Below, piece by piece: positions 39,974-46,948 of a DNA stretch of 64,000 nucleotides. Position 1 is the stretch's first letter; the number at the start of each line of letters is the position of its first letter. The notes beneath the pieces are model-generated. The model was not told where the DNA came from, did not search any database, and saw only the letters and a list, made by a program, of their open reading frames with translations. Source of the DNA: a virus; the IMG/VR virus record IMGVR_UViG_3300034061_000981, positions 32,001 to 96,000 of that record; one strand, given 5' to 3'. Made by a program: the position numbers and the translations under genes.

Positions 39974-40002
39974 TTGACATAAATACAGAAAGATAATATA
40001 AT
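39974..40002 (+). promoter_or_regulatory. Consensus sigma70 promoter for the tmRNA locus
   Basis: TTGACA-17 bp-TATAAT. Confidence 0.9.
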
Positions 40003-40008
40003 TAGTTA

Positions 40009-40380
40009 TATTAATATTGCTGTATGAAGCAAAGAGAAAAGTGTCTTGGACGGGGGTGCGAATCCCCCCAGGTCCACCAATAAGGATGATTATGAACGTT
40101 GCACAAACATTAAAAGTTACAGGCTATCTAGTAGGTGCGTACATTGCTTACAAGTTAGGTCTTGAAGTGTGGTGTGTTGTTTATGGACTACTTTATTGAT
40201 GGGCCTGACCTAGATTCGACAGGGCAACAAGTAAATTAGTGGACAGCTCGGCAAAGCAGAAGCCGTTAGGGTTGGGGGAACTCGGCCAAAGAAGCAAAAA
40301 CCATAAACGCAAACGATAGCGTATATTCCTTGGCCGCTTGAGGTTAAGGTGCAGTAGGACTTACTGTATTAAATAAAAAA
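40009..40380 (+). ncRNA. ssrA: Circularly permuted (two-piece) tmRNA gene: acceptor piece ends 40079, coding piece starts 40201, tag ANDSVYSLAA at 40309..40341
   Basis: GGGCCTG (40201-07) pairs with CAGGTCC (40069-75) including the G3-U alanine determinant, then A-CCA; T-arm GGGGG-TGCGAAT-CCCCC; GATTCGAC after the 5' end; ATAAAC-GCA resume context; outer ends approximate. Confidence 0.92.
40092..40199 (+). CDS. 35-aa hydrophobic peptide encoded inside the tmRNA intervening segment
   Basis: SD TAAGGA at 40081-86; MNVAQTLKVTGYLVGAYIAYKLGLEVWCVVYGLLY; stop ends 1 nt before the tmRNA 5' G. Confidence 0.6.
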   Translation: MNVAQTLKVTGYLVGAYIAYKLGLEVWCVVYGLLY

Positions 40381-40384
40381 CCAC

Positions 40385-40410
40385 AATAGGAGCTTCGGCT
40401 CCTATTTGTT
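40385..40410 (+). terminator. Intrinsic terminator after tmRNA
   Basis: AATAGGAGC-TTCG-GCTCCTATT followed by TGTTT. Confidence 0.85.
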
Positions 40411-40630: not shown

Positions 40631-41512
40631 ATGAAAAAAATCGCATTAGCGACATTATTGGCCGCAACTACAATGGTTGCAACAGCACAAGTATCAATCT
40701 CTGGTAAAGTTGCTCAATTTGCAGACAGCACTAAAACTGGTGTAGTTCGCAATACTGGTATCGTAGGTGAGCCTACAAACAACATCACTATTTCTGCTAC
40801 AGAAAATTTAGGTGGTGGTTTAAGAGCACGTGTTGTATTAGATACAAGCCTTGGTCCAAACACTATCAACGGCGGTGGCACACAATTGGGTGATCGTCAA
40901 GGTACAGTTGGTCTAGCCGCCAAAGTTGGATCAATTGATATTGGTCGTAACGTTCACAGTCAGTTTTTGTCAATCACTAACAACGATGTATTCGGAACTA
41001 TGTATGGTTCAGTTGCCGGTGATGTACATAACTTACGTGGTCTACGTGTAAGCAATGGTGTATTCGCTACAGTTAACCCAATGAAAGGTGTAACAGTTTC
41101 TTATGACCGTACACAGGGTGCAACTGGTCAAGATGCAACTAGTTATGGTGCAGTTGGTTCATTTGCTGGTTTTACAGCAACAGCCGCACGTTTTGAACAA
41201 GGCGCTGAAGTTAGCACAGTAGTTGGTTTGAATACTAAAATTGCTGGCACACGATTGACATACACTCATAGTGATAACACAGGTGCTGTAAACAGCAAAG
41301 GTGATTTAATTGGTGCAAGTCAATCAATTGGTGCATATACTGCTAAGGCAAGTTTTGGTCGTACAAACAAAGATGTTAGAGCCTATTCTGTAGGTGTTGA
41401 CTATGCTTTTAGTAAGAGAACAGACGCGGGTATTGCATACCGTAGCGTTAATAAAGTTGGTGCATCACATGATGTAGCACAAGTTGGAGTTGGTTTAACA
41501 CACCGCTTCTAA
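40631..41512 (+). CDS. Gram-negative outer membrane porin (betaproteobacterial type)
   Basis: Signal peptide MKKIALATLLAA..ATAQ; ENLGGGLRA; VGVDYAFSKRT; C-terminal VGLTHRF; preceded by TAAATA at 40578. Confidence 0.88.
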   Translation: MKKIALATLLAATTMVATAQVSISGKVAQFADSTKTGVVRNTGIVGEPTNNITISATENLGGGLRARVVLDTSLGPNTINGGGTQLGDRQGTVGLAAKVGSIDIGRNVHSQFLSITNNDVFGTMYGSVAGDVHNLRGLRVSNGVFATVNPMKGVTVSYDRTQGATGQDATSYGAVGSFAGFTATAARFEQGAEVSTVVGLNTKIAGTRLTYTHSDNTGAVNSKGDLIGASQSIGAYTAKASFGRTNKDVRAYSVGVDYAFSKRTDAGIAYRSVNKVGASHDVAQVGVGLTHRF

Positions 41513-41528
41513 TTATTAATTAGATAAC

Positions 41529-41553
41529 AAAAGGGGCTTTAAGCCCCTTTTTT
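41529..41553 (+). terminator. Intrinsic terminator after porin
   Basis: AAGGGGC-TTTAA-GCCCCTT plus T tract. Confidence 0.85.
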
Positions 41554-41585
41554 ATTTTCTGTAAAATTAGTTACCCTTTTAGTTA

Positions 41586-41593
41586 TATAAATA
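41586..41593 (+). promoter_or_regulatory. T4-type late promoter TATAAATA upstream of ahpC
   Basis: Exact match in intergenic DNA. Confidence 0.5.
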
Positions 41594-41642
41594 TGTATGA
41601 GTATGTTATACTTACACAGACTATTACACATAAGGAGATAAT

Positions 41643-42182
41643 ATGAAAACAGTTGGTGATAAATTAGAAGCATTTGTAGTAACAGGTGTTAAGCCAGGAC
41701 AACCGGAAGATGCATTCTTCCCAATTACAGAAGAAAGTTTTGCAGGTAAATGGAAAGTTATCGTTTACTATCCAAAAGACTTCACATTCGTTTGCCCTAC
41801 AGAAATCGTAGCGTATGATAAATTACGTAGTGATTTTGAAGACCGTGATGCAGTATTGTTGACAGGTTCTACCGATAACGAATTCTGTAAACTAGCATGG
41901 CAAAAAGCACATCCAGACTTAGCAAAGATTAGTCATAATCAATTTGCTGACACAGCCCGTGATGAGCGTAGTTTGATTAATCAACTAGGAGTGTTCTATG
42001 CTCCGGCAGGTGCGGCACTACGTGCAACATTTATTGTTGATCCACAGAACGTTATTCAACACATTACAGTTAATAACTTAGATGTTGGTCGTAGCCCAGA
42101 AGAAACATTGCGTGTATTAGACGCATTGCAAACTGGTGAACTATGCCCATGTTCACGTCCAATCGGCGGAGCAACATTATAA
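41643..42182 (+). CDS. ahpC: Peroxiredoxin (alkyl hydroperoxide reductase C)
   Basis: YPKDFTFVCPTE, GRSPEE.LRVLDALQ, ELCPC. Confidence 0.95.
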   Translation: MKTVGDKLEAFVVTGVKPGQPEDAFFPITEESFAGKWKVIVYYPKDFTFVCPTEIVAYDKLRSDFEDRDAVLLTGSTDNEFCKLAWQKAHPDLAKISHNQFADTARDERSLINQLGVFYAPAGAALRATFIVDPQNVIQHITVNNLDVGRSPEETLRVLDALQTGELCPCSRPIGGATL

Positions 42183-42721
42183 TGCAACCAATTACAATTA
42201 ACGGAGATTGGGTACAGTCCGTAAAAGACAGCATCCCGGACCACTCAAAAGATATCAGATTAAACATTGACGCTGTTATCAATCGTTCAGGTCTAGATCC
42301 AGTTGATACACATGCTATTGCCTATGTATCAGCACTTGCCGCCGGCAATGGTGGATTAGCATTTGAGATTGAACACAATGGTCCTTTGTTTATGGCAGAA
42401 GCTGAACGTGAAGCCGCAAAGACTGCCGCAAGTTTGATGGGTCAAAACAACATTTGGTATCCATTTGTTGAAATGACAGGTGACGAATCAATGAAGGGTT
42501 TACCTGCAGGATTGCGTATGAATGCTTATGCTACTCACGGTGGTGTATCTAAGAAGAAATTTGAAATGTATTCATTAGCCGCAAGTATTATTGGCAAATG
42601 TCATTTCTGTGTAAAAGCACATTATGATACATTAAAGAAAGAAGGAATGTCCACACAAGAGTTAATGGCAATTGGTCGCATCGCGGCTGTTGTTAACTCT
42701 ATTGGTAAGATTGCTATTTGA
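42182..42721 (+). CDS. ahpD: Alkyl hydroperoxide reductase D
   Basis: KDIRLN, AASLMGQNNIWY, FEMYSLAAS.IGKCHFCVKAH; ATG overlaps ahpC stop. Confidence 0.92.
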   Translation: MQPITINGDWVQSVKDSIPDHSKDIRLNIDAVINRSGLDPVDTHAIAYVSALAAGNGGLAFEIEHNGPLFMAEAEREAAKTAASLMGQNNIWYPFVEMTGDESMKGLPAGLRMNAYATHGGVSKKKFEMYSLAASIIGKCHFCVKAHYDTLKKEGMSTQELMAIGRIAAVVNSIGKIAI

Positions 42722-43915: not shown

Positions 43916-45019
43916 ATGGCATCGCAAATTTCTGACAATCTGACAATCACTAGCGTACAAACTCGCAAAGCATTGTTGACAGCTTTTAAAGTAAAACGTC
44001 CCGTATTCTTGTGGGGACCTCCCGGTATCGGCAAAAGTGAAGTTGTTGCCGAAGTTACTGAAGAACTCGGTGGCCATATGATTGACTTGCGTATGGCACA
44101 AATGGAACCTACAGATATTCGTGGTATCCCATACTTCAATAAAGATATTGCTAAGATGGATTGGGCGGCACCTGTTGACTTGCCCGATGAAGAACTTGCA
44201 AGCAAGTACCCAATTGTTGTTCTATTCTTAGATGAGATGAACAGTGCATCACCTGCAGTACAGGCAGCTGGCTATCAGTTGATTTTGAATCGCCGTGTAG
44301 GTAAATATGTATTGCCCGATAATGTTGTTATCGTTGCGGCAGGTAATCGTGATAGTGACAAAGGTGTTACATATCGTATGCCGATGCCCCTCGCTAATCG
44401 TTTCTTGCACTTAGAAATGCGAGCCGACTTTACGTCATGGCAGAACTGGGCTGTTGACAAAGGTATTCACAAAGACGTTGTGGGTTACTTGTCATTCGCT
44501 AAACAAGATTTGTACGAATTTGATAGCAAATCTAGTTCACGTGCGTTTGCTACTCCTCGTAGCTGGTGCTTTGTGTCTGACTTGTTGAATGATGAAGATA
44601 ACATTGATACTGATACAATGTTCAACTTGGTGTCAGGTGCAGTTGGTGAAGGTCTTGCTGTTAAGTTTATGGCACATCGTAAGATTGCAGGTAAGATGCC
44701 CGCACCAAGCGAAATTCTTTCAGGTAAAGTGAAAGACTTGTCTGTGAAAGAAATTTCGGCAATGTACTCATTGACAATTTCTATGTGCTATGAATTGCGT
44801 GATGCACTTGAAGCTAAGAAAGTTGATAGCAAGAAGTTCCACGAAATGGCTGACAATTTCTTTAGCTACATTATGACTAACTTTGAGACTGAATTGGTTG
44901 TGATGGGTGCTAAGATTGCACTTAAGACATACAAGTTGCCGATCGAGCCGAGTCAGTTGAAGCACTTTGATGACTTCCACAAGAAATACGGCAAGTACAT
45001 TGTTGAAGCAGGTAACTAA
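43916..45019 (+). CDS. MoxR-like AAA+ ATPase
   Basis: GPPGIGKS, LFLDEMN, AAGNR, LANRF, TPRSW. Confidence 0.9.
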   Translation: MASQISDNLTITSVQTRKALLTAFKVKRPVFLWGPPGIGKSEVVAEVTEELGGHMIDLRMAQMEPTDIRGIPYFNKDIAKMDWAAPVDLPDEELASKYPIVVLFLDEMNSASPAVQAAGYQLILNRRVGKYVLPDNVVIVAAGNRDSDKGVTYRMPMPLANRFLHLEMRADFTSWQNWAVDKGIHKDVVGYLSFAKQDLYEFDSKSSSRAFATPRSWCFVSDLLNDEDNIDTDTMFNLVSGAVGEGLAVKFMAHRKIAGKMPAPSEILSGKVKDLSVKEISAMYSLTISMCYELRDALEAKKVDSKKFHEMADNFFSYIMTNFETELVVMGAKIALKTYKLPIEPSQLKHFDDFHKKYGKYIVEAGN

Positions 45020-45022
45020 ACA

Positions 45023-45047
45023 GAGGGGTGCTAGTCACCCTTCTTTT
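45023..45047 (+). terminator. Intrinsic terminator
   Basis: GAGGGGTG-CTAGT-CACCCTTC-TTTT. Confidence 0.7.
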
Positions 45048-45061
45048 AACTAAGGATTATT

Positions 45062-45214
45062 ATGACAGGTAAGAAATATTTTTACGCATTGGGTCAACGT
45101 GCTAGAGCAAAAGGAATGACCAAGGACCAAGGTATGGCCTTCTATTCTATTGAATCGGCACACGATTATGCCCGAATTGCGTTTGACGCAGGATATCGTG
45201 GATTGTCACATTGA
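45062..45214 (+). CDS. 50-aa hypothetical protein (not in ORF track)
   Basis: SD TAAGGA; MTGKKYFYALGQRARAKG..FDAGYRGLSH. Confidence 0.65.
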   Translation: MTGKKYFYALGQRARAKGMTKDQGMAFYSIESAHDYARIAFDAGYRGLSH

Positions 45215-45239
45215 CAATAAATATAAGGTCTGCTATAAT
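45211..45239 (+). promoter_or_regulatory. Early sigma70 promoter
   Basis: TTGACA-17-TATAAT. Confidence 0.85.
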
Positions 45240-45269
45240 ACATTTTTTACATTTACAAAGGGACATATA

Positions 45270-45623
45270 ATGCAATTGACTTTTAGAGCATATCGTGGTA
45301 AAACAATTCTCAAAATGATTGAAAATCTTCTCAAAGAAGGTAATGTTATTCGTGCTCCCGAATATGGTAATGTAGTAGATGGAATTCACGGCGGTTCACC
45401 TGAAGGTATTAAGATTGACCCTCCTGCTAATATTCGTGGTATTGGTATGGATAGACTAGCAGGTTCTTGTGGCTATAAAACTTCTTTTACTAAGAAGCAA
45501 CAAGAAAAAATTGTATTGATTCATTTAGGTACAAAATACTTTGAATTGTATAGTGATGAAAAAGAACTCAATAAAGCATCATTCCCTAGTGAGGCTTGTG
45601 AATTTATTGCAGTTGACAATTAA
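45270..45623 (+). CDS. Hypothetical early protein
   Basis: ATG at 45270 after AAGGGA, downstream of the promoter. Confidence 0.65.
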   Translation: MQLTFRAYRGKTILKMIENLLKEGNVIRAPEYGNVVDGIHGGSPEGIKIDPPANIRGIGMDRLAGSCGYKTSFTKKQQEKIVLIHLGTKYFELYSDEKELNKASFPSEACEFIAVDN

Positions 45624-45641
45624 TACAATCTCTGTTACAAT
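45613..45641 (+). promoter_or_regulatory. Early sigma70 promoter
   Basis: TTGACA-17-TACAAT. Confidence 0.8.
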
Positions 45642-45667
45642 AGACGCATAAACAATAAAGGACTATT

Positions 45668-46948
45668 ATGAGTGAAGTACTAAATCCCACTAAGCGAACA
45701 CGTAGTAAGAAGTATGAGAATCTTATCGGACCTACTGATAAGAAAGTTGACTTTGACGCACGTGAACGTTTGGTAACAGCACGTATTGGTTTGCTACTAC
45801 GTCATTCATTCTTTGGTAATCTTGCTACACGTTTGCAGTTGATTAATGCTGATGAATGGTGTGGCACAGCGGCAACTGATGGTCAGAAGTTTTATTACAA
45901 TAGCCGCTTCATTATGATGTTGAAGCCCAAAGAAGTTGAATTTTTAGTAGCACATGAAGTGTTACACGTTGTATACGATCATATGGGTCGTAGAGATCAC
46001 CGTGACCCGCAAATCTGGAATATTGCTGATGACTATGCAGTTAACGCAGACTTGAAACGTCACAAAGTTGGTCAATTTATTACATCAGTACCTTGCTTGT
46101 ATGAGCAAAAGTATGATGGCAAAGCCGCTGAAGTTATCTATGATGACTTGATGAAGAACGTACAAAAGATTGATATCAATGACCTTATTGATCAATTGCT
46201 TGACGATCACATGGATGGTGATGGTGAAGATGGTGAGAGTGATAGTGATGGTAACAAGCAAGGTAAAGGTAAAGGTCGCCCTAAATTGTCTGATGAAGAA
46301 AAAGAACGTATTCGTCAGGAAGTTAAGCAAGCAATTATCAATGCCGCACAAAGTGCAGAAGCAGGTCAATTGCCACTTGGTGTTGAACGATTGATTAAGC
46401 AAGCAACTAACCCAGTCATGCCCTGGCGTGAACTGATTCAAACTAACTTGACTAGTGCTATTCGTACAGATTATAGTTGGATGCGCCCTTCTCGTAGAGG
46501 CTGGCACATGGATGCAATCATGCCCGGCATGACACCGGGAGAAGAGATTGATGTTGTTGTTTCTATTGATATGAGTGGTTCTATCAGCAACAAACAAGCA
46601 CAACAATTCTTAGGTGAGATTGGTGGCATGATGGATTCGTTCGATGGCTACAAGGTCCATGTATTCTGTTTTGATACTGACACATATAACCCACAAGACT
46701 TTTCTAGTGAGAATATGGAATCTATTGAAGAATATCAGCCAATGGGCGGTGGTGGTACTGACTTTGATTGTATCTTTACATACTTGAAAGAGAACGCTAT
46801 CGATCCGAAACGATTGATTGTATTCACTGATGGATATCCCTGTGGTTCATGGGGTGACCCTGACTATTGTGATACTACTTGGATCATTCATGGTGACCCT
46901 AATCCGAATCCCCCATTCGGTACATATGCGATATATGATGAGAAATGA
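45668..46948 (+). CDS. Metallopeptidase plus VWA domain protein (DUF2201-like), probable partner of the MoxR ATPase
   Basis: TAATDG, AHEVLH, WNIA.D; MIDAS DMSGS..GGGGTDF..FTDG. Confidence 0.88.
   Translation: MSEVLNPTKRTRSKKYENLIGPTDKKVDFDARERLVTARIGLLLRHSFFGNLATRLQLINADEWCGTAATDGQKFYYNSRFIMMLKPKEVEFLVAHEVLHVVYDHMGRRDHRDPQIWNIADDYAVNADLKRHKVGQFITSVPCLYEQKYDGKAAEVIYDDLMKNVQKIDINDLIDQLLDDHMDGDGEDGESDSDGNKQGKGKGRPKLSDEEKERIRQEVKQAIINAAQSAEAGQLPLGVERLIKQATNPVMPWRELIQTNLTSAIRTDYSWMRPSRRGWHMDAIMPGMTPGEEIDVVVSIDMSGSISNKQAQQFLGEIGGMMDSFDGYKVHVFCFDTDTYNPQDFSSENMESIEEYQPMGGGGTDFDCIFTYLKENAIDPKRLIVFTDGYPCGSWGDPDYCDTTWIIHGDPNPNPPFGTYAIYDEK

Follow-up and report, generated by a model that had tools for sequence, protein, structure and literature searches.

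Circularly permuted tmRNA genes have been described in Alphaproteobacteria, in some Betaproteobacteria and in Cyanobacteria (Rfam families RF04321 and RF01849-51; PMC11915505, PMC9004378; see also Keiler et al. 2000 and Sharkady and Williams 2004, as cited in these two papers). Their organisation is distinctive: an acceptor piece ending in CCA is followed by an intervening sequence and then by the coding piece, the acceptor stem carries a G3.U70 pair, the tag ends in LAA, and the intervening sequence is absent from the mature RNA. The phage locus analysed here shares this organisation, and its intervening sequence would likewise be missing from the mature RNA. However, the intervening sequences of the bacterial genes are described as non-coding, whereas here a Shine-Dalgarno (SD) sequence, an open reading frame (ORF) and its stop codon are integrated in the helix which closes the spacer.

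The presence of a second gene within the part of a tmRNA gene that is removed from the mature RNA is not without precedent. According to the 2025 tmRNA database paper, one permuted intervening sequence contains a tRNA-Ala gene and another a repetitive element, and of 883 group I introns in tmRNA genes, 36 carry LAGLIDADG homing endonuclease genes (PMC11915505). These cases involve an RNA gene, a repeat or a selfish endonuclease within a self-splicing intron. In contrast, the phage spacers encode diverse small proteins, there is no intron, the cargo would consist of small host-directed or redox proteins, and removal of the spacer would fall to the tRNA-processing enzymes. No protein ORF in a tmRNA intervening sequence is recorded in the 2025 database paper (PMC11915505) and the literature on phage two-piece tmRNAs and on huge phages makes no mention of protein ORFs in the spacer. 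A coding and exchangeable tmRNA spacer seems to be undescribed in the searchable literature. The closest phage example is the ssrA gene of Methylophilales phage Melnitz, which carries a glutamine riboswitch (PMC9004378). It is likewise a permuted phage tmRNA with an early sigma-70-type promoter and an acquired extra functional module, but this module is a riboswitch located in the 3' domain and not a protein gene located in the spacer.

Single transcripts can serve both as messenger and as functional RNA, or as the precursor of one. Examples are the dual-function RNAs SgrS/SgrT, RNAIII/delta-haemolysin and SR1/SR1P, and mixed operons such as thrU-tyrU-glyT-thrT-tufB of E. coli or the small ORFs in the tRNA cluster of T4. 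In all of these the ORF is adjacent to the functional RNA or part of it, and neither need be lost. The ORF of the phage tmRNA, by contrast, separates the two halves of a single stable RNA and would have to be destroyed before this RNA could mature.

Organisation of the permuted tmRNA gene

The window (the whole stretch of 64,000 nucleotides analysed) belongs to a record of 107.6 kb which is about 30% complete according to CheckV, implying a phage genome of roughly 350 kb. Its GC content is about 35% and almost all genes lie on the plus strand. Rfam model RF04321 (tmRNA_permuted) matches window positions 40018-40341 over model positions 1-213 with 115.9 bits, for a gathering score of 47, and ARAGORN also identifies a permuted tmRNA (flag 'tmRNA*') with the tag ANDSVYSLAA. 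The order of the elements is 3' acceptor piece with encoded CCA, intervening sequence and 5' coding piece. In the 7-bp acceptor stem, GGGCCUG (40201-40207) pairs with CAGGUCC (40069-40075), G3 being opposite the U at 40073 (G3.U70), and the T-arm reads GGGGG-UGCGAAU-CCCCC. The tag frame lacks a start codon and ends in a hydrophobic AA degron followed by a stop. Transcription would start near position 40009 and probably ends at a GC-rich hairpin at 40385-40406. The features of the locus are as follows.

39974-40002, plus strand: sigma-70 consensus promoter of the pre-tmRNA (TTGACA 39974-39979, 17-nt spacing, TATAAT 39997-40002; 12 of 12 consensus matches)
40018-40079, plus strand: tmRNA acceptor (3') piece with P2 strand, T-arm and 3' acceptor strand (RF04321 alignment and ARAGORN; 62 of 62 positions identical to related locus L008)
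40069-40079, plus strand: 3' acceptor strand (40069-40075), discriminator A (40076) and encoded CCA (40077-40079) (sequence and RF04321 alignment)
40078-40085, plus strand: 5' strand of the closing helix, made of C75, A76 and spacer nucleotides 1-6, holding the SD core AAGG (minimum free energy (MFE) fold and covariation)
40080-40200, plus strand: intervening spacer of 121 nt, from CCA to the mature 5' end (sequence and RF04321)
40081-40086, plus strand: SD sequence TAAGGA, 5 nt before the ATG at 40092 and within the 5' strand of the closing helix
40092-40199, plus strand: gene for a hydrophobic peptide of 35 residues (MNVAQTLK...VYGLLY), with the ORF at 40092-40196 and TGA at 40197-40199
40191-40198, plus strand: 3' strand of the closing helix, made of the last two codons (Leu, Tyr) and the first two stop bases (MFE fold and covariation)
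40201-40384, plus strand: tmRNA coding (5') piece with GGGCCTG, pseudoknot region and tag frame (ARAGORN and RF04321; first approximately 115 nt identical to L008)
40309-40341, plus strand: tag reading frame ANDSVYSLAA and TGA (ARAGORN, coding part 323-355 of a gene starting at 39987)
40385-40406: GC-rich hairpin, terminator candidate (scored on the minus strand; TTGTTT follows on the plus strand)

L008 and the other L-numbers used below designate related loci compared with the window. The betaproteobacterial-type tmRNA model RF01850 (gathering threshold 84 bits) is not matched at threshold by the window copy. It is passed by close relatives (103.6 bits for L008, and 99-113 bits for L014, L060, L084, L129 and L044), so that the lineage appears beta-like, the window copy itself being filed only under RF04321. 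No SmpB gene was found in the 107.6-kb record, which itself represents only about 30% of the genome.

The spacer had originally been noted to contain an SD sequence TAAGGA just after CCA, a 35-codon ORF and a stop codon one base ahead of the mature 5' end, and this layout is what the sequence contains: a single T (40200) separates the TGA from the mature 5' G at 40201. A second in-frame ATG, at 40086, would yield a peptide of 37 residues. A 60-codon frame starting with TTG and running through the tRNA-like piece was rejected as a gene model, in view of the good SD and ATG inside the spacer and of paralogs outside the spacer which begin at the equivalent methionine. Taken alone, the window spacer is only mildly unusual, since 159 of 5000 dinucleotide shuffles yield an ORF of equal coverage (p about 0.03). 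The significance of this ORF, which is weak by itself, derives from comparative data.

Conservation and properties of the spacer peptide

Homologs were sought with the 60-residue TTG frame restricted to its residues 21-60, and the database search returned 9 protein clusters of 33-63 residues. Peptide homologs occur at 50 loci: in the spacer in about 18 cases (at the same position in L124, L073 and many further loci), directly upstream of the tmRNA in 8, with the stop about 9 nt ahead of the 3' piece, 126-700 nt upstream in about 18, and after a tRNA pair in 6. Since the 50 loci belong to related phages, this linkage to stable-RNA genes may reflect synteny as much as function. The frame is unbroken in 13 distinct in-spacer copies and in 21 distinct copies outside it. 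The invariant positions of the peptide are K8, Y20, L22, L24, E25, W27, C28 and V30-Y35. Within the spacer, the first in-frame ATG is always located 7 nt past CCA and the stop always 1 nt before the 5' piece. The peptide has no match among cultured phages, belongs to no PHROG or Pfam family, and has no useful neighbour in the ESM Atlas (best score 0.81).

Locus L008 provides a direct comparison. A neighbouring protein is 80% identical to that of the window, and the tmRNA bodies are identical throughout the 62-nt 3' piece and some 115 nt of the 5' piece. Here, a homologous 35-codon gene is located upstream of the tmRNA, directly behind a promoter, and the spacer is occupied by a different hydrophobic ORF. 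Between the window copy and this paralog from outside the spacer, the C-terminal 21 codons show 11 nucleotide differences, none of which changes a residue (P about 1e-7). Pooled over the last 16 codons of 30 distinct copies, pN/pS is 0.155 at a pS of 0.71. This excess of changes at synonymous sites, together with residue identity, indicates purifying selection on the peptide. The N-terminal part (half or third) of the peptide evolves fast, with dN/dS of 0.29-0.69 between in-spacer orthologs. On these comparisons, the sequences argue that the spacer ORF is a real, selected gene.

AlphaFold2 predicts a single helix spanning residues 3-34 (pLDDT 88). The GRAVY value is 0.96; the best 19-residue Kyte-Doolittle mean is 1.36, under the usual transmembrane threshold, and K21 and E25 lie inside the segment. 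Judged from these models, membrane association of the peptide is plausible. As to its role, an early envelope-directed accessory factor, for example a superinfection-exclusion peptide, would be a guess of low confidence, suggested by the small lipoprotein and porin genes which share the neighbourhood. A holin or type I toxin identity was also considered but is not claimed.

Several of the copies outside the spacer have particular contexts. The upstream copies of L008 (2808-2840) and of several other loci start 3-6 nt after a -10-like box, TAAATA or TATAAT, and, judging from this position, would be leaderless ORFs at the extreme 5' end of the pre-tmRNA. In L213-L217 and L235, the genes of one branch of the peptide, a single family, follow a tRNA-Thr/tRNA-Pro pair at a distance of 37 nt and are preceded by an AAGGTGA SD sequence; tmRNA is absent from the stretch examined around these peptide genes. 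In L228, L231, L233 and L234, a conserved 74-residue ORF with a lipoprotein-like signal (...LVGC...) separates the peptide gene from the tmRNA. The surroundings of the phage tmRNA thus seem to be a gathering place for genes of small envelope proteins.

Cargo exchange and covariation in related spacers

Scanning viral contigs with the T-arm/acceptor sequence as a single pattern identified at least 120 loci. Among the matches listed, the 5' piece is found 4-342 nt downstream in 113 loci, representing 104 distinct spacers. An ORF covers at least 80% of the spacer in 40 of the 67 spacers of at least 80 nt among these matches. The corresponding figure is 6 for the reverse strand of the same 67 spacers and 8.45 +/- 2.6 (maximum 15) for shuffles. 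Among the matches listed, 35 of the 104 spacers start with TAAGG or AAAGG. In a sample extended by further loci to 130 distinct spacers, where an SD, a start codon in the first 30 nt and an ORF of at least 20 codons were demanded, at least 48 spacers carry an SD and an ORF, and these fall into at least 24 unrelated families. Coding spacers occur in about 40% of the related phage tmRNA genes. The possibility raised at the outset that homologous spacers would lack ORFs and SD sequences is true of about half of them and clearly false for the rest. All 15 ORF-bearing loci that were re-tested are full RF04321 matches (66-136 bits).

The cargo is diverse and includes recognisable domains: a thioredoxin in the spacer of L121 (PF00085, 75 bits), CxxCxxCC domains in those of L023 and L055, and Oxidored-like mini-proteins in six 115-nt spacers (PF09791, 41-46 bits). 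Many other cargos are tiny hydrophobic peptides of 22-26 residues. Pairwise dN/dS values are low: the Cys-rich protein gives 0.06, a 38-residue family 0.05-0.17 and the Oxidored-like group about 0.01. Moreover, when loci are paired by tmRNA flanks (162 nt) of at least 97% identity, the identity of the spacer interiors falls below 50% in 27 of the 41 pairs. Even where the flanks are 100% identical, one locus of a pair sometimes has an ORF and its partner a plain hairpin. The association of near-identical tmRNA bodies (97-100%) with unrelated spacers implies that the spacer behaves as an exchangeable cassette. Cargo families also recur beside the tmRNA, as seen for the window peptide and for an Oxidored-like gene which, in L205, is located upstream of the tmRNA and has an ATG start of its own. 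The proposal that the spacer is a safe cargo slot for variable genes receives strong support from these families, from the Pfam domains and low dN/dS of several of them, and from the different spacers within near-identical bodies.

Some of these cargos are unusual in their boundaries. L121 (213-464, minus strand) and the L201 spacer hold complete thioredoxin genes of 84 residues, with the active sites CGPC and CDTC, respectively; both proteins end in ...KVSL and use the terminal TGA of the spacer. The Oxidored-like protein (CCGxGCxGCVW) of the 115-nt spacers of L129, L025, L032, L091, L060 and L086 has no start codon within the spacer. Its sole in-frame ATG is a conserved one in GCTGTATGAAGC, at the 5' end of the acceptor piece and 55 nt before the CCA end, so that the protein would be read through the T-arm and CCA. 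In four further cargo families (L008 3026-3148; L100, L030, L082, L202, L013, L035, L046, L048 and L014), the ORF meets no stop ahead of the mature 5' end and enters the coding piece; after RNase P cleavage such ORFs would be non-stop messages. Unannotated permuted tmRNAs are also present in two cultured jumbo phages, Xanthomonas phage BUDD (L010 1348-1668, ON758385) and phage X1 (L009, OQ427096). They match RF04321 with about 77 bits, have the tag VAANDADYSVARYA and contain a spacer of 126-127 nt without an ORF. In the BUDD annotation, a 'hypothetical protein' CDS spans both the acceptor piece and the spacer.

The two ends of the spacer are joined by a helix. Each of the first 11 spacer nucleotides finds its pairing partner among nucleotides -5 to -15 ahead of the 5' piece in 80-100% of the 100 spacers of at least 50 nt. 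Compensatory pair types are numerous (for example GC 31, AT 18, GT 17, CG 16 and TA 10 at helix position 5), and pairing is far less frequent in registers slid by 1-3 nt. This helix of about 11 bp extends the acceptor stem via A73.U, C75.G and A76.U, C74 being always opposite an unpaired A. Among the matches listed, the last four nucleotides of the spacer are TGAT, TAAT or TGA[CAG] in 101 of 104, spacers without an ORF included. Since the terminal T[GA]A is kept even there, the position of the stop is set by the RNA and is not by itself evidence of coding. The triplet adjoins the 3' strand of the helix, opposite CCA, and is exploited by the ORFs. Of the 17 cargo families whose frame reaches the spacer end, 13 are in frame with this terminal stop (binomial p = 3e-4). 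The window peptide also shows the imprint of the helix: copies in the spacer always end CT[TC] TAT TGA T, whereas those outside mostly use TAC and TAA, which shows that codon choice is adapted to the helix. The interior of the spacer is no more stable than shuffles (z = -0.6), as expected of coding sequence and not of structural RNA.

Proposed expression from the tmRNA precursor and probable host

We consider it highly probable that the spacer holds a genuine small-protein gene, transcribed only within the tmRNA precursor and placed in an exchangeable slot. In the mechanism proposed, each transcript would act as messenger first and as stable RNA afterwards. The ORF would be transcribed solely as part of the pre-tmRNA, from the promoter at 39974-40002. 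The SD would be made about 110 nt before its pairing partner, and a ribosome could load while it is still free. When the nascent RNA (40000-40165) is folded, its centroid structure leaves most of the SD and AUG free. In the MFE fold of the full-length precursor, on the other hand, the SD and both AUGs are base-paired, a prediction equally compatible with poor translation of the ORF. The ribosome would then translate the 35 codons and terminate 1 nt short of the RNase P site.

Given the size of its mRNA channel, a ribosome covers mRNA beyond the stop codon. When terminating at 40197-40199 it would cover at least the first 10 nt of the mature 5' end, that is, the 5' acceptor strand, so that RNase P could not cleave while termination is in progress. 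Once the ribosome has been released, the helix and the tRNA-like domain would fold, RNase P would cut, and the 3' trailer, i.e. the message, would be trimmed back to CCA. Since the spacer is a 3' trailer which has to be removed for CCA to be exposed, the message would be short-lived by design. As one strand of the covarying helix carries the SD and the other the stop, translation and tmRNA maturation would compete on one transcript. The original prediction held that maturation releases or destroys a mini-mRNA and thereby couples its expression to RNase P; such coupling is plausible, given that both the SD and the stop belong to the helix which closes the spacer. It could be extended further: RNase P cleavage would leave the stop one base from the 3' end or, in four other cargo families, would leave a message devoid of a stop, cargo messages would become substrates of trans-translation, and tagging would act as a timer. 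We regard this extension as rather unlikely. If it were true, the products of translation that precedes processing would be stable, whereas those made after processing would be SsrA-tagged and degraded, so that a built-in timer would restrict cargo expression to the moment of transcription of the tmRNA gene.

A different order of events, in which RNase P and a cut next to CCA excise the spacer before a free mini-mRNA of 121 nt is translated, would account for the way in which the SD, 2 nt after CCA, and the stop, 1 nt before the RNase P site, delimit a near-exact monocistronic message, with an identical layout across the 13 distinct in-spacer copies. It is nevertheless distinctly unlikely. The excised ends could still pair and hide the SD, and a message with a single nucleotide beyond its stop would be a poor substrate for termination. 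Moreover, in tRNA 3' maturation the 3' trailer is exposed to exonucleases once RNase P has cleaved, and by general knowledge the same would apply to the spacer. It could also be supposed that the ORF acts in cis, transit of the ribosome timing or chaperoning the folding and maturation of the tmRNA and the peptide being incidental. The participation of the SD and stop in the closing helix in every cargo family would fit this idea, as would the highly variable identity of the cargo and the abundance of tiny hydrophobic peptides of 22-26 residues. It is made very improbable by conservation of the window peptide at the protein level outside the spacer as well, upstream of the tmRNA or after tRNA genes, by the strong purifying selection on other cargos which are recognisable enzymes or domains, and by the fact that about half or more of the tmRNAs of this lineage have no ORF.

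Finally, the ORF might not be translated at all, its sequence being kept because of constraints on the RNA itself, for example spacer structure or a signal for processing. The pairing of the SD and AUG in the MFE structure and the constraint imposed by the helix on the spacer ends are compatible with this explanation, but it is hardly credible in view of a spacer interior no more stable than its shuffles, of substitutions that are mostly synonymous, of retention of the same peptide in a different RNA context and of Pfam domains encoded by sister spacers. A protein-coding gene read from the precursor before maturation remains the preferred interpretation. The permuted tmRNA intervening sequence, hitherto treated as disposable, would then be a site for protein-coding cassettes, and phage annotation would systematically miss such small genes or miscall them as longer ORFs over the tmRNA. 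It would also provide a natural setting in which translation competes with the maturation of a stable RNA on the same molecule, and a compact design, transferable to other contexts, for producing a peptide together with a structured RNA. This raises the question of whether a spacer-bound ribosome delays RNase P and whether its product is tagged by the tmRNA of the same transcript.

A proteobacterial host, perhaps a betaproteobacterium, is suggested by the kind of porin encoded, by the sigma-70 promoter and by the fact that relatives have a beta-type tmRNA (RF01850). The genes directly downstream of the tmRNA (window 40631-42721 and 43916-46948) encode a Gram-negative porin (Porin_4, 73 bits), an AhpC/TSA protein, an AhpD-like CMD protein, a MoxR-type AAA ATPase and a DUF2201 VWA metallopeptidase, and a long glycan-synthesis cluster is located upstream. 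A search for related loci with the upstream 341-aa gene returned none, and six of the seven loci reached through the downstream porin gene are without a tmRNA.

In cellular genomes, only 2 of the 55 matches to the T-arm/acceptor pattern are permuted, both on contigs of metagenome-assembled genomes (MAGs), and the rest are mostly ordinary one-piece tmRNAs. This tmRNA lineage therefore looks phage-borne. The two cellular contigs with the permuted type, L134 (a Crocinitomicaceae MAG) and L142 (a Haliscomenobacter MAG), are probably phage contigs binned into MAGs. The spacer of L142 carries an SD and a hydrophobic ORF of 23 residues belonging to the L105 family.
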